Under the pieces are notes generated by a model that had not been told where the DNA came from, did no database searches, and saw nothing but the letters and a program-made list of their open reading frames with translations. Below, piece after piece: positions 1,594 to 8,078 of a DNA stretch of 64,000 nucleotides; the stretch's first letter is position 1; every line of letters begins with the position of its first letter. This DNA comes from Clostridia bacterium. GTDB taxonomy: Bacteria > Bacillota > Clostridia > Monoglobales > Firm-18. A program made the position numbers and the translations under genes. Location: contig JAZOOD010000027.1 of NCBI GenBank assembly GCA_045654805.1, positions 1,719-65,718 on the forward strand, read 5' to 3'.

Positions 1594-3333
1594 TTATAAT
1601 ATCTTACAATCTAAAATCTCAGTTCTATACCCATCTAATTTGCCTTTTGACTTATATTCAACCATAAATCTGAATGGTAAGTCTTTAATTCTGACCTCTA
1701 CTATATGCCCTTTATATACTGTTATACTATGTGTCATAGCACCAAGCAAAGCATCCATATTATCATTTTCAAAAGACAAAGCATTATCTATCTCTGCAAT
1801 AATGTTATCAATCTGATTAACTTGATTTTCTTTTTCTTGTCTTTCTTGTTCTATTCTTTCTTTTGTTACAAAGAGTTCTGAAAGCTCCTTATCTAATTTT
1901 TCTTTCTGCTCTACAAACTCTGTTTTTGTAATTTCATCAGCAAGTCTGATTTCAATGAGTTTTTGTTTTCTTTTCTCAACACTTTGAATTTTCTTTTCAA
2001 AATAATCAGTATTTAACCCATTACTTTTCTTATCTAAAGTCTTAATATCTTCTAATATCTCTTTTTTAAGCATTTCCTTGTTGTCTGCCAATATGTTCAG
2101 TATGTATAAAACAATCTGCCTTAAACTTTTGTCACTTGCCCATTCTGATTGCAAACATTCCTTTGTCCTGTCAGCAGTAGCCTTTGTATGATTATAGCAA
2201 GTCCAAGCCTTTGTCCTACCAACTGATGTTTTTTTCTGCTTACTTACAAATCTTTCTCCACACTCTCCACAGTATATCTTGCCACTTGCCCAATATCGAT
2301 TGCTATGCCTTGACTTTTGCTCTTCTGAAGGGCTACGCCTTGCAAGTTCTTTTTGTGTGGCATCCCACATATCTCTGTCTATTATAGCTATCTCTGGATG
2401 GTGGTCTTTAATATATACCATATCTTCTACATTGTGATTATATCTCTTTTTATGGTCAAGAAAGTCTGGTGTATAGGTTTTGCCTTGTAGCAAATCCCCA
2501 ACGTATTTTTCATTTCTCAATATTCTTAAAATTACTGTGTTTGACCAATCATTCTTATACTTTGCTTTACCATCTGGATTCAAAGGTCTGATACCTTCTT
2601 CTTGCAGTTCTCTTGCTATCACATAAGTACCCTTGCTCTCAATCAGATACTTATAGAAAATCTTTCTGACAATCTCTGCTTCTTCTTCAACCAAGTAAAG
2701 CTTGCCACCTTTAACCCTATATCCAAGCATATCCCTACCAAATACAACCCCTTTTTCCATCTGACGCCTTTGACCCCATTTCACACGTTCAGAGGTCTTT
2801 CTGCTCTCATCTTGTGCCAAGGATGCCATAAGGGTTAAGCGCAATTCTCCATCTTTGTCAAGAGTGTTGATGGCATCTAACACAAAGTAAACCCCAACAC
2901 CTAACTTTTTTAATAACCTTGTAATTTGCAAAGTATCAACTGTATTTCTTGCAAATCTTGAAACTTCTTTTGTGATGATAAAATCAATTTTACCAGACAA
3001 AACATCATCAAGCATTGAATTGAAACCAACACGATTTTCAGTTGTTGTACCTGTCAAACCATCATCAGAATAAACCTTAACTAATTCCCAATCATTTTGA
3101 TTGTTGATAAAATCTGTAAAAAATTTTACCTGACTTTCAAATGAGTTGGCTTGGTCATCCTTATCTGTGCTAACTCTTGCATAAGCAGCCACTCTAATTG
3201 TATCAGCCAAAACATTTCTAACACTATTTAACCCATTAATAATATTGACATTATCAATCACAGCACTACTACCATTAACAACATTTAAAATATTACTACC
3301 ATTACTACCAATTAAATTACTAAAATTCTTCAT
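1594..3333 (-). CDS. large serine recombinase (SpoIVCA/TnpX-like)
   Basis: 579 aa. Resolvase catalytic domain (YARVSTDKDDQ...SRFARN), recombinase domain, zinc ribbon (CGECG...WTCYNH) and a C-terminal coiled coil. AGAGG SD precedes the ATG. Confidence 0.9.
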   Translation of the reverse strand: MKNFSNLIGSNGSNILNVVNGSSAVIDNVNIINGLNSVRNVLADTIRVAAYARVSTDKDDQANSFESQVKFFTDFINNQNDWELVKVYSDDGLTGTTTENRVGFNSMLDDVLSGKIDFIITKEVSRFARNTVDTLQITRLLKKLGVGVYFVLDAINTLDKDGELRLTLMASLAQDESRKTSERVKWGQRRQMEKGVVFGRDMLGYRVKGGKLYLVEEEAEIVRKIFYKYLIESKGTYVIARELQEEGIRPLNPDGKAKYKNDWSNTVILRILRNEKYVGDLLQGKTYTPDFLDHKKRYNHNVEDMVYIKDHHPEIAIIDRDMWDATQKELARRSPSEEQKSRHSNRYWASGKIYCGECGERFVSKQKKTSVGRTKAWTCYNHTKATADRTKECLQSEWASDKSLRQIVLYILNILADNKEMLKKEILEDIKTLDKKSNGLNTDYFEKKIQSVEKRKQKLIEIRLADEITKTEFVEQKEKLDKELSELFVTKERIEQERQEKENQVNQIDNIIAEIDNALSFENDNMDALLGAMTHSITVYKGHIVEVRIKDLPFRFMVEYKSKGKLDGYRTEILDCKIL

Positions 3334-3762: not shown

Positions 3763-4347
3763 TTATATTTTTTTCACCAACTGTCTTTTCTTTTCTCTTT
3801 GTAGTGTACTCTTCGATATACCTGTCATCGCTGAAACCTGTTTATATGAATGATTTTCCAACAACTGCATAGCCAGACTTAATTGTGTCTTGCTATATTT
3901 CTTTGGTCTGCCTTCTATGTAACTATCCTTTTGTCTTGCCAATTCTCTGCCTGCTTTGGTGCGTTCTACAATCATATTTCTTTCAAATTCTGCAAAAGAC
4001 AATAAGATTGTATATGTCAATCTGCCAACAGGTGTATTATCTATAACACCTAAATTGAGTATATCTATCTTAACACCTTTATCCATCAAATGCTCTATGA
4101 TGTCTAATCCTTCTCTCACATTGCGGCAAAACCTATCCATTTTGCACACAATCAGAACATCTCCACTTACTAATCTATCTACCAACTCATTAAATACAAA
4201 TCTATTATTGAAATCTTTTGCAGCAGTATAAACTTCTCTGTGTATCTCTGCTGAAGGATATTTTTCTAATATAGTCTGTTCTTGCTCTGCCAGAGAATTA
4301 TTTTCAGCCTGACCTTTGCTTGACACACGAACATATCCGTATTCCAT
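3763..4347 (-). CDS. small serine recombinase (resolvase/invertase family)
   Basis: MEYGYVRVSSKGQ catalytic motif and a C-terminal HTH (SYKQVSAMTGISKSTLQR). Start moved to ATG 4347, which sits behind an AGGTG SD. Confidence 0.88.
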   Translation of the reverse strand: MEYGYVRVSSKGQAENNSLAEQEQTILEKYPSAEIHREVYTAAKDFNNRFVFNELVDRLVSGDVLIVCKMDRFCRNVREGLDIIEHLMDKGVKIDILNLGVIDNTPVGRLTYTILLSFAEFERNMIVERTKAGRELARQKDSYIEGRPKKYSKTQLSLAMQLLENHSYKQVSAMTGISKSTLQREKKRQLVKKI

Positions 4348-4364
4348 ATCTAACACCTGCCTTA

Positions 4365-5992: not shown

Positions 5993-6823
5993 TTACATAA
6001 CAACATCTGTAAATGCAAGTGTATATGTTCCAGGTGCAAGTTTACTTGTATTAGTTATATATATGCTTTCAGAAAATTTTTCATTAAGATTAATGTTATG
6101 CTTTGTAATCATTCCTGACCCCACAACAACATTAGAACTATCATATAACTTCCAATTCATAGTGCAGTTCATAGATGCACCACCTTTAAAATCAAAGGTT
6201 TTTTCACAAAGCAAATCAAGAGTAATCTTTTCAGATGTAACATTTACTTTTGCTTCTCTTATTGTACAGGTAGAATATTTATCGCCTCTGCTGCCTATCC
6301 AATGTACATCTTGTGGCAAGTTGTTTTTTAAAACAACTGATATATTTGGCTTATTCTCTTTAGTGGTTGATGCTTGTGTTTCATCTGTTTTCTTTTCAAC
6401 CACATTAACTTTACATCTGTTAGTTGTTGATTTCTCATCTATTCCAATTTCAACAAAGATATAAGTTGTTCCAAGTGCTACCGCTTGAAACGTTTCAAAG
6501 CCTGGCTCATCAGTGTTAATTAGTCCTTTGTTAGGGTCCCAATCTCCGCCATATCTTAATATACGGGTATCACTTGTTTCTCTTTCACCATTCTCTTTTT
6601 GATAATAAAAAAGTGGTCTTTCTTTGTCCTTTGGAGAGTATTCAATTTGAAATTCTTCACCTAATTCAACAGTTATTTCTTCAGGTGATATTACCCAATT
6701 TATAATCTCGTCAGGTTTAGGTTCATTAGAAACATTTGTACTTTCTGTATTACTACAAGAAATAAGTGTTAATGAAATAAGCAAACATAAGCATACTGTT
6801 ATTAATTTTTTTGTGTTTTTCAT
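5993..6823 (-). CDS. lipoprotein, unknown function
   Basis: Signal peptide with the lipobox LISCS. 276 aa, beta-rich. GGAG SD. Confidence 0.7.
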   Translation of the reverse strand: MKNTKKLITVCLCLLISLTLISCSNTESTNVSNEPKPDEIINWVISPEEITVELGEEFQIEYSPKDKERPLFYYQKENGERETSDTRILRYGGDWDPNKGLINTDEPGFETFQAVALGTTYIFVEIGIDEKSTTNRCKVNVVEKKTDETQASTTKENKPNISVVLKNNLPQDVHWIGSRGDKYSTCTIREAKVNVTSEKITLDLLCEKTFDFKGGASMNCTMNWKLYDSSNVVVGSGMITKHNINLNEKFSESIYITNTSKLAPGTYTLAFTDVVM

Positions 6824-6841
6824 AGTAATTCTCCTTGTATT

Positions 6842-6869
6842 AAAAAATGCGTGGGCAAATGCCCACGCA
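6842..6869 (-). terminator. leader terminator (attenuator) 19 nt upstream of the lipoprotein ATG
   Basis: Minus strand reads UGCGUGGGC-AUUU-GCCCACGCA followed by UUUUUU. It lies just before the SD at 6834-6831. Confidence 0.6.
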
Positions 6870-6894
6870 CGAAAAACGAGGCAATGCTCCTGTT

Positions 6895-7000
6895 GTCACG
6901 CAGTTCACTATTCCTACATCGTATGGAAAATGATAAGCAAGCCTGCGTTTTTACCAACGCAAGCCACACGATATAAGAATAACATATTAAACTACGTGAC
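6895..7000 (-). promoter_or_regulatory. structured 5' leader (riboswitch-like, class unknown)
   Basis: Three nested helices on the minus-strand RNA. P1 pairs 7000-6991 with 6904-6895 (10 bp). P2 pairs 6972-6964 with 6926-6918 (9 bp). P3 pairs 6963-6956 with 6949-6942 (8 bp). Each helix contains a G-U pair that would be an A-C mismatch on the other strand. Confidence 0.45.
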
Positions 7001-7006
7001 TAATAC

Positions 7007-7035
7007 ATTTTAACATAAAATTTATCTCTTTTCAA
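7007..7035 (-). promoter_or_regulatory. sigma-A type promoter for the leader and lipoprotein operon
   Basis: TTGAAA, 17 nt spacer, TAAAAT on the minus strand. Confidence 0.6.
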
Positions 7036-7060
7036 TACTTTTACAAATATTTACCTGATT

Positions 7061-7090
7061 AAACAAAAAATAACCGTATTGACTACGGCT
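7061..7090 (-). terminator. intrinsic terminator with no associated ORF
   Basis: Minus strand reads AGCCGUA-GUCAA-UACGGUU followed by AUUUUUUGUUU. Confidence 0.4.
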
Positions 7091-7361
7091 ACTTTATACA
7101 TATATCCCAACCACCCACCCTTGCAAAATACCATAAGGATATAATTCCCATATGATTTAATGTTGTATAAGAATTTTAAGTTGTATTATTATTTTATACT
7201 AGTATATATACCTCTCTATATTAATAACAACGACACTGTCTAAATTTATGTCCAATATAAAACTTTTTTTATAAATATTTTCCAAAATAATACTTTTCTG
7301 TGTTATTGCTGAAAATAAAATTTTTAAATTTTTCTATGTATTCCATATCAAGCAGAAGGCA

Positions 7362-7766
7362 GGTACAGAAGAACTTGCACACCTTGAAATTGTTGGTGCA
7401 ATGGTTCATCAGTTAACCAGAAATTTATCTATGAAACAAATTAAAGAACAAGGTTTTGGTGATTATTATACAGACCACGGTGTTGGCGTATATCCACAGA
7501 GTGCAGCAGGTACTCCCTGGTCAGCTGCAACAATTGCTGTAAAAGGTGATGTAATTGCAGACCTCAACGAAAACCTTGCTGCTGAACAAAAAGCAAGAGC
7601 AACCTACGAAAATCTGCTAAAATTAGCTGATGATCCTGATGTAATTGAACCTCTAAAATTTCTTCGTACAAGAGAAATTGTTCATTATCAACGTTTCGGT
7701 GAAGTTTTAAATGATATTCAACAAAAAATGTCATCTAAAAACAAATTTTATTTTAACAAAAAATGA
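7362..7766 (+). pseudogene. cotJC: manganese catalase / CotJC-family gene, 3' segment of an interrupted gene
   Basis: GTEELAHLEIVGAMVHQL...AAEQKARATYENLL...FLRTREIVHYQRF, with the ExxH and REIVH metal-ligand motifs. It is in frame with the 5' segment when 1517 is joined to 7365. Confidence 0.85.
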
Positions 7767-7833: not shown

Positions 7834-7924
7834 TGGCGGAGAAGGAGAGATTTGAACTCTCGCGCCGGTTTCCCGACCTACACCCTTAGCAGGGGCGCCT
7901 CTTCGGCCTCTTGAGTACTTCTCC
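7834..7924 (-). tRNA. tRNA-Ser (anticodon GCU)
   Basis: 91 nt. GGAGAAG...CT-GCT-AA anticodon loop, long variable arm, GTTCAAATC T-loop and encoded CCA. Confidence 0.9.
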
Positions 7925-7988
7925 AAACCGTAGCTAACTATGAAATATTAAAGTAAAAACTCCGAAAGATACTATCTCCGAAGTTTTA

Positions 7989-8078
7989 TGGAGGAGAGGG
8001 GCGGATTCGAACCCCCGGACGGCGCAAACCGTCACTGGTTTTCAAGACCAGCTCTTTAAACCACTCAGACACCTCTCC
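7989..8078 (-). tRNA. tRNA-Ser (anticodon UGA)
   Basis: 90 nt. GGAGAGG...CT-TGA-AA anticodon loop, long variable arm, GTTCGAATC T-loop and encoded CCA. Confidence 0.9.

Follow-up and report, generated by a model that had tools for sequence, protein, structure and literature searches.

The 64,000-nucleotide stretch analysed here, referred to as the window, comes from a Clostridia bacterium (GenBank assembly GCA_045654805.1, contig JAZOOD010000027.1) and carries on its minus strand a structured leader of ∼160 nucleotides (nt) directly ahead of a lipoprotein gene (5993–6823). The gene was called as an open reading frame (ORF) of 276 amino acids (aa) with the lipobox LISCS; the protein had no match among the Pfam or NCBIfam families, and the gene is the predicted target of regulation by the leader. 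Both are located on an inserted element of ∼5.85 kb that splits a cotJC-type Mn-catalase gene on the plus strand into two pieces (1356–1517 and 7362–7766). The N-terminal piece ends with ...GTLTDIG at ∼1516 in the +3 frame, and the remainder resumes with TEELAHLEIVGAMVHQL at ∼7362 and matches positions 98–198 of the Mn_catalase profile. The element further encodes a 579-aa large serine recombinase (1594–3333) and a 197-aa small resolvase (3763–4356), and the leader lies ∼360 bp inside its right end.

The leader is preceded by a promoter consisting of a −35 hexamer TTGAAA (7030–7035), a 17-nt spacer and an extended −10 element TGtTAAAAT (7007–7015, with TAAAAT at 7012–7007 and TG at 7015–7014). 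This promoter had 10 of 12 matches in a promoter scan and agrees with the one that an earlier note, made from the letters of the window alone, had placed here. The −10 hexamer ends 6 nt ahead of the first base of P1, and the predicted transcript start is at ∼7000. In the minimum free energy (MFE) fold the 5′ arm of P1, termed a (GUCACGUAGUUUA, 6988–7000), pairs with a 3′ arm, termed a′ (UGAACUGCGUGAC, 6895–6907), which is also recovered in the family alignment described below; the duplex has a free energy of −17.7 kcal/mol. A 5-nt bulge on the 5′ side (6983–6987) forms a hinge, where UAAUAU (6989–6984) constitutes a −10-like hexamer. P2 follows with its 5′ strand at 6965–6982 and its 3′ strand at 6908–6925, the latter assigned from the fold, the duplex test and a comparison with a second copy of the element (L055, see below); in the duplex test across members, P2 strands paired at −13.9 kcal/mol with their own partners and at −5.6 kcal/mol with those of other members. 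The rod is closed by the P3 hairpin GCUUGCGUU / AACGCAGGC (6941–6964; 6964–6956 paired with 6949–6941; duplex −12.5 kcal/mol) with the apical loop GGUAAA, and an internal loop of 15 nt, present on the 3′ side only, separates P3 from P2 (6926–6940). The three helices that the earlier note had called nested are thus present, with coordinates differing by a few bases, and together with the hinge they make up a single continuous rod of 106 nt. The fold of the 185-nt region 7005–6821 (ViennaRNA) had an MFE of −74.3 kcal/mol, compared with −42.0 ± 3.9 kcal/mol for 200 dinucleotide shuffles, none of which was as stable (z = −8.4).

The rod is followed by a 24-nt linker and an intrinsic terminator, GUGCGUGGGC-AUUU-GCCCACGCAU plus a U run (6842–6870), which was found by a terminator scan and has a stem duplex of −19.0 kcal/mol. 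Its hairpin (6870–6847) has 10 bp, of which 7 are G-C, and leads into six U residues at 6847–6842. The strong terminator with U6 ahead of the lipoprotein gene had been noted before; the Shine-Dalgarno (SD) sequence AAGGAG (6831–6836, from sequence reading) begins 5 nt past the U run rather than 7, so that the lipoprotein gene can be transcribed only by read-through. The earlier description had missed that the linker is complementary to two other parts of the leader. Segment Y of the linker (GAGCAUUGCCUCGUUUUU, 6872–6889) can pair either with the 5′ arm of the terminator (T5′) or with a segment X (AAAAACGCAGGCUUGCUU, 6935–6952), which comprises the 3′ strand of P3 and the start of the internal loop; the X:Y duplex of the window has 16 bp and −17.2 kcal/mol. 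Beside Y, the short segment a2 (AACAG, 6890–6894) is a copy of the inner 5′ arm of P1 and can pair with a′, in the window copy with only 3 bp (−2.8 kcal/mol).

A blastn search with the leader as query (own genome, its family, plasmids and phages) returned only the self-match. Homologues of the lipoprotein, however, carried the same type of leader: at 91% protein identity (L010) the leader was nearly identical to that of the window, and at 58% (L011) and 53% (L012) it had the same architecture, with compensatory changes in P1. The terminator base is common to the leader types of the window and of L011 and L012, and a search pattern was derived from it (TTTTTNGTGCGTN{10,18}ACGCATTTTT). This pattern matched at least 120 genome loci, nearly all of them in metagenome-assembled genomes (MAGs) of Clostridia among the matches listed, and the unit of promoter, rod, linker and terminator was present upstream in all pattern loci except two chance matches, in Kurthia and Calothrix. 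A covariance model, R1, was built from 37 diverse members. The window copy (7000–6842) scored 99.6 bits against it (E = 1e-15), a score that is partly by construction as this copy is one of the 37 seeds; members that were not seeds reached 134.9 bits. R1 found five copies in the 1.9-Mb genome to which the window belongs and 111 copies in 100 fetched loci, and it confirmed 95 of the 95 loci derived from the pattern. In an even sample of the class, 41 of 151 genomes had matches (27 of 108 genera), with up to at least 19 copies per genome, where 19 is a floor since only 19 candidates were scored per genome. The leader of the window is therefore one member of a large uncatalogued family in gut Clostridia.

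The earlier note had suggested a cis-regulator carried on a mobile element. The leader is not peculiar to this element: the family is spread over many Clostridia chromosomes, most copies lie outside mobile elements, and the upstream neighbours of 89 copies were unrelated housekeeping genes (alaS, metK, IMP dehydrogenase, RNase Y and others). A mainly phage-borne family was likewise rejected, as there were only three pattern matches in IMG/VR and two blastn matches in the phage collection. Tandem arrays of two or three complete units occurred in 8 of the 100 loci. Head-to-tail arrays of promoter, leader and terminator were seen in the window's own genome (C66:96881–97055 and 97230–97403) and at L110 and L105 (three units each), L026, L072, L082, L083 and L086; the distance between units in these arrays is 49–175 nt. 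Another own-genome copy (C29:70393–70548) is located near a contig end and adjoins what by eye, from the N-terminal sequence, appears to be an IS3-type transposase gene pair (C29:69024–70267); the 68-aa ORF after this copy had a weak similarity to Spo0A_C / sigma region 4 (E = 5e-4, below the Pfam cut-off).

The anatomy of the window copy recurred throughout the family. Promoters with at least 9 of 12 matches preceded 84 of 110 copies, 77 of these 84 had the TG extension, and the −10 hexamer ended 6 nt before P1 in 70 copies and 7 nt before it in 13; given this fixed spacing, transcription would begin at the first paired base, a G in 93% of members. P1, mostly 11–14 bp long, was 98.8% paired on the family alignment, with compensatory changes at every pair; the pairs G1-C, C2-G and A4-U have conserved identities, and the third pair covaries freely. 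P2 ranges from 9 to 23 bp and has no sequence conservation. The internal loop on the 3′ side measured 5–19 nt in parsed members. GGUAAAA is the central sequence anchor of the family, and the apical loop before it is often of the UUCG type. The rod of the window follows this layout throughout (P1, 5′ hinge, P2, 3′ internal loop, P3 and apical GGUAAAA), its linker falls within the family range of 23–25 nt, and its terminator carries the conserved base UUUUUnGUGCGU...ACGCAUUUUU (GUGCGU/ACGCAU across the family) directly before the SD and the ORF. The strand of the RNA could also be fixed, because G-U pairs make up ∼10% of the pairs in the rod and the sense rod (−40.0 kcal/mol) was more stable than the reverse complement (−31.0 kcal/mol) in 98% of the 111 members; the argument for a minus-strand RNA that had been drawn from G-U pairs in the window is hence valid for the whole family. 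A TAnnnT hexamer was present in the hinge (+9 to +26) in 84% of members compared with 50% in a control window. At +12 to +18 the hexamer is degenerate (UAAUAU, UAUAAU, UAAAAU, UAUAUU); it could be a sigma-dependent promoter-proximal pause element, or it may only reflect an AU-rich bulge. A UAA/GAN motif or K-turn at the hinge was dropped, since its 3′ side is unconserved and its 5′ side is the degenerate TAnnnT. A leader peptide was also discarded, as an SD is lacking and the window and L011 do not share their short ORFs.

Covariation was evaluated for both sets of helices on the homologous leaders, and it supported the rod, the terminator and the alternative helix. For the rod and terminator 89.9% of cells were paired, and the covariation was 0.418; shuffling gave 0.142, with none of 500 shuffles reaching the observed score, and sliding the partners gave at most 0.066. 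For the alternative set, X:Y plus a′:a2, 82.1% of cells were paired, and the covariation was 0.315 compared with 0.186 after shuffling (0 of 500 as high) and at most 0.13 with slid partners. Y has the consensus RGAGC-UAUGYG-UUUUU and is complementary over its full length to X, which is composed of the P3 3′ strand (UAAAAAUGC) and the first internal-loop bases GCUCY; the variable triplet beside A5/U5 covaries (CG/UG/UA, GC/AU/GU and CG/UG/UA). An alignment-free comparison gave the same picture, as X paired with its own linker at −16.3 kcal/mol and with the linkers of other members at −10.7 kcal/mol, and in 95% of cases the own linker was better than the mean of the others. The antiterminator pairing Y:T5′ had −12.2 kcal/mol for own and −9.1 kcal/mol for other partners. 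When transcripts were cut before the 3′ arm of the terminator, 95% of members folded as rod plus antiterminator hairpin. In the window copy the antiterminator is weaker (−7.4 to −9.7 kcal/mol, family mean −12.5 kcal/mol); 7 of 10 terminator-arm bases were paired with the linker in the truncated-transcript fold, and the pairing was weak. In the family, the inner four pairs of a′:a2 were 77–94% paired with several pair types each (own −3.1, other −1.7 kcal/mol). In an own-versus-other scan of the 45 pairs of ten segments only P1, P2, P3, X:Y and the terminator were flagged, and Y:T5′ and a′:a2 gave weaker signals; a hidden local 5′ hairpin or a further conserved pairing was not found among these 45 pairs. 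Both sets of helices are kept by covariation, and the structure of the leader is under selection.

At gathering thresholds, Rfam 15 recognized only tRNAs in the window, and it had no match on the motif in 18 typical member loci. With E-values up to 10, the best match of the window leader was nqrA-II, at 28 bits against a threshold of 55, and this alignment lay mainly on the segment downstream of the internal loop, terminator included; the typical member L106 gave chance matches only. The T-box model RF00230, which covers stem I and the T-box antiterminator sequence, did not match the window or L106 at E up to 10, and by eye the linker of L011, AAUUGGGGGACUACAC, bears a faint likeness to the T-box sequence. 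The earlier statement that no known class was recognizable thus agrees with the Rfam scan that had been suggested for checking it, both for the window and for typical members. A full-text literature search for the conserved sequences yielded no paper, with the sequences of the HMP2 structured-RNA catalogue (PMC8040213) outside its reach, and no literature linking BspA genes to a riboswitch in Clostridia was found.

An ORF with an SD was present on the same strand within 300 nt behind 110 of 122 copies, and its start codon usually lies 15–25 nt past the U run. This distance has no space for a further promoter, and the downstream gene therefore depends on read-through. The suggestion of an undescribed cis-regulator is the most likely reading of a leader that is uncatalogued in Rfam 15 and has an ORF with SD behind most copies. 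More specifically, we consider it likely that the leader of the window is a cis-acting RNA of ∼160 nt which functions as a conditional transcription terminator (attenuator) of the lipoprotein operon, as a member of a large uncatalogued Clostridia family. Since Y is complementary to both X and the terminator 5′ arm, the leader would be a multi-segment attenuator with five segments: the P3 5′ strand (0), X (1), Y (2), T5′ (3) and the terminator 3′ arm, T3′ (4). Transcription would start at the first base of P1, and the RNA would first zip into the long rod of P1, hinge, P2 and P3. Y would then pair with the terminator 5′ arm as an antiterminator, which would block the terminator and allow read-through into the gene (pairing 0:1 plus 2:3). 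Alternatively, Y would pair with X, for which P3 must open, leaving the terminator free to form and to stop transcription 5 nt before the SD (pairing 1:2 plus 3:4). The segment a2, beside Y, might also pair with the 3′ arm of P1. We infer that the two helix sets are mutually exclusive, that the choice between them is made during transcription and that it responds to a trans-acting input. The input might well be a protein or an RNA polymerase factor that acts on the rod or on P3, which is our tentative first choice; purely kinetic, NTP (nucleoside triphosphate) or temperature control is less plausible, and a small ligand is improbable. As the antiterminator of the window copy is weak, the default of this copy is probably termination.

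Several points weigh against this explanation. Only 5–8 nt separate P1 from Y, whereas a straight rod of 24–35 bp leads to X; such a tether cannot span the rod, so X:Y could form only if the rod bent sharply at the hinge or opened. The lengths of P1 and P2 are uncorrelated (r = −0.07), for which reason a length-matched fold-back of P2 onto P1 that would bring Y to X was rejected; a fold-back mediated by the hinge is possible, given that the difference in length between P1 and P2 is bounded (mean 1.5, standard deviation 5.6 bp). The pairing a′:a2 is incompatible with P1. The very stable rod (mean −40 kcal/mol) is the first part to be synthesized, and the model gives no reason why P3 or P1 should open. 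When the rod was kept intact, the terminator state was favoured over the antiterminator state by 5 kcal/mol on average and by 13 kcal/mol in the window copy. X:Y is thus not needed thermodynamically for termination, and the antiterminator would form as a kinetic intermediate, a situation known from many riboswitches. For the leader, the sites of initiation and termination and the conditional nature of read-through are predictions, and no effector was found among the candidates considered (NusG paralog, small protein and neighbouring regulators; see below). The sequence conservation of the terminator is inflated, because most members were gathered with a pattern taken from it. Finally, ∼10% of copies have no ORF close behind and some copies are arranged in tandem, which would fit an independent small RNA as well.

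One of the other explanations is a true riboswitch. In that case the rod, including hinge, internal loop and apical loop, would be an aptamer for a small molecule, for instance a second messenger, and the ligand would steady P1 and P3 so that Y forms the antiterminator (an ON switch), or the reverse. The layout is in line with it, with a promoter, a domain closed by P1, the alternative pairing a′:a2 and a terminator/antiterminator pair, and the leader is found in multiple copies ahead of surface-protein genes. Riboswitches for cyclic di-GMP (c-di-GMP) in Clostridia are likewise found in multiple copies ahead of surface-protein genes. Of the riboswitch-type design that had been proposed earlier, the structured leader with its own promoter and a terminator was confirmed, but a ligand-binding aptamer was not supported. 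The best-conserved bases sit in the alternative pairings, and few are conserved outside them; the small number of conserved unpaired bases and the variable length of P2 (9–23 bp) make a metabolite aptamer unlikely. The hinge holds only a degenerate TAnnnT, a UUCG-type loop often forms the apex, and a P1 of 11–14 bp in a rod of −40 kcal/mol on average needs no ligand to form. In addition, no Rfam class matched even at E up to 10, and the downstream genes have no metabolic theme. The strict riboswitch reading is possible but not favoured, and we regard it as unlikely. In a wider sense, the family could be a new RNA sensor, either a new riboswitch class or a self-contained device that is read by the transcribing polymerase; this is conceivable but doubtful.

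Some features of the 5′ end would also be expected of a module that acts on the polymerase itself, like PR′-tR′ of phage lambda with its Q protein. Here the hinge hexamer (+12 to +18) would pause sigma-bound RNA polymerase, a factor loaded at the pause would defeat the terminator, and the helices would mainly set the default of termination. The 6S RNA unit of lambda, a short terminated transcript directly ahead of genes, has a similar design. The constant 6–7 nt between promoter and P1 and the G at +1 in 93% of members are compatible with such a module, as is the enrichment of TAnnnT at +12 to +15 (84% vs. 50% in the control; 40% vs. 17% for at least 5 of 6 matches), although this may reflect an AU-rich unpaired bulge. 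The hinge variants resemble variants of a −10 element more than a single RNA motif, and a few copies are on phage contigs, but most are chromosomal, by housekeeping genes. The strong covariation of X:Y and of the antiterminator would be left unexplained, and the search for a Q-like or NusG-like factor gave none: of the 41 leader-positive genomes, 38 have a single NusG or none, and no regulator is enriched beside the copies. Such a module has, in our view, little probability.

The leader could further be a gene for a stand-alone small RNA of ∼160 nt that acts in trans, with downstream expression as incidental read-through. It has a strong promoter and a strong terminator of its own, and once terminated, the RNA would expose its 24-nt linker as a single strand free to pair; the tandem arrays of two or three units in 8 of 100 loci and the ∼10% of copies that lack a nearby ORF would also be accommodated. 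A small RNA would, however, have no use for the conserved antiterminator pairing, nor would it account for the same-strand SD and ORF behind 110 of 122 copies, typically 15–25 nt past the U run. The complementarity of X and Y is specific to each copy, which points to intramolecular pairing rather than to a shared target in trans, and a small RNA is accordingly very unlikely. Last, a DNA-level role of the inverted repeat, whether as a site of recombination or of the attC type, as a single-strand origin or as a remnant of the mobile element, is close to negligible and was ruled out: the repeat is long and imperfect and lies ∼360 bp inside the right end of the cotJC-splitting element, and P1 sequences such as GCCAAAC/GTTTGGC bear a faint likeness to attC core sites, but the G-U signature is strand-specific (sense more stable in 98% of members), the conserved unit includes a promoter at a fixed distance and a terminator, the covariation seen for X:Y and for the antiterminator can be understood only at the RNA level, and most copies are outside mobile elements.

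As a proposed conditional terminator, the leader resembles the attenuators of Bacillota such as pyr/PyrR and trp/TRAP of B. subtilis and the expression platforms of S-box leaders. In these systems and in the model of the leader alike, helices built from overlapping RNA segments exclude one another, the choice between the antiterminator (Y:T5′) and the terminator is set by an upstream helix (here X:Y versus P3), and the terminator lies directly ahead of the regulated gene. Unlike these systems, the leader has no consensus for binding PyrR, TRAP or SAM (S-adenosylmethionine) and no Rfam match, its sensing part is a long rod that starts exactly at +1 and includes a variable P2, and with at least 19 copies in some genomes it stands before surface and accessory genes with no relation to each other rather than before those of a single pathway. 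With T-box leaders it shares a long 5′ stem that has its internal loop on the 3′ side and, further downstream, a weaker antiterminator in competition with a stronger terminator, and the default without effector is probably termination in both. It differs from them in that RF00230 does not match at E up to 10, the partner of the internal loop is the linker of the same RNA and not a tRNA anticodon, and the downstream genes are not those of aminoacyl-tRNA synthetases or amino-acid metabolism. Like the c-di-GMP-I/II riboswitches of Clostridia, the family consists of multi-copy 5′ leaders with terminators before surface- or adhesin-type genes, but neither sequence nor structure matches and a conserved junction core is lacking. 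PR′-tR′ of lambda (6S RNA) with Q and the put RNA of phage HK022 have in common with it a strong promoter, a transcript of ∼160–190 nt that ends at a strong terminator just before genes, a −10-like element early in the transcribed region and, for some leader copies, a location on phage contigs; the leader, in contrast, keeps two alternative RNA folds by covariation, has no known Q-like factor and is mostly chromosomal.

The genes behind the leader were compared for 109 ORFs. Among them were 12 genes for BspA-type leucine-rich repeat proteins, 4 for Cu_amine_oxidN1 proteins, 4 of the AbrB/MazE type, 3 for XRE helix-turn-helix proteins and about 17 for helical proteins of 40–55 aa (M..YKEMY..LFN..ITD..EExYI), which had no Pfam or NCBIfam match. 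Many of the remaining ORFs encode signal-peptide proteins or lipoproteins, and the downstream genes have no common pathway. Two unannotated families (12 members each) and regulators accounted for most PHROG matches of the downstream proteins. The small helical protein was considered as a universal effector and rejected, because it is absent from three leader-rich genomes; none was found in five leader-free genomes. One genome (G154; L141, L143, L145 and L147–L152) had 11 copies of this protein, several of them directly behind the leader, and in the window's own genome a 120-aa protein encoded after the second leader of a tandem pair carries the motif as its C-terminus (C66:97422–97785). A NusG paralog of the LoaP type was also rejected, as 38 of the 41 leader-positive genomes had a single PF02357 match or, in one incomplete genome, none. 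A regulator encoded beside the leader was also rejected, none being enriched among the upstream neighbours of the 89 copies.

A second copy of the element end was found in L055, a MAG of Ructibacterium sp., which belongs to another genus. Positions 4290–4850 of L055 were ∼85–90% identical to 6815–7375 of the window and included the same junction, the ‘orphan’ region corresponding to 7061–7243, the promoter and the leader. Within the leader only P2 differed, rewritten by compensatory changes between flanks that were about 90% identical. The homology ends at the SD, and the cargo of L055 is a Cu_amine_oxidN1 protein. The same head is thus combined with another cargo, suggesting that the promoter plus leader acts as a portable head for different cargo genes; if the attenuator model is right, the cargo operon of the cotJC-splitting element would be expressed through this head. 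Across the family, the model would mean that many uncultured gut and rumen Clostridia use one shared RNA device to gate dozens of surface-, lipo- and small-protein genes; the regulon would be large and hidden, in organisms that are hard to grow or manipulate, and the device is absent from Rfam 15 and from the literature searched. With more than 100 diverse members and covariation support for both alternative folds, the family would offer a clean natural example of an RNA switch. Should it be a new sensor, the surface, lipoprotein and small accessory genes of a large regulon would respond, in roughly one quarter of the genomes sampled from the class (mostly uncultured gut and rumen lineages), to a signal not yet tied to any known RNA element.

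Two further features were observed next to the leader. Upstream of its promoter, the region 7061–7243 (minus strand) contains a terminator-like hairpin (7095–7067) and ORF-free DNA and is ∼90% conserved in L010 and L055; from this conservation it appears to be a conserved part of the element end. Beyond the element, two tRNA-Ser genes (GCU and UGA; 7834–8078, minus strand) are located between the split cotJC fragment and pth/prs, and they are followed by a terminator with a perfect 21-bp hairpin (7834–7791).

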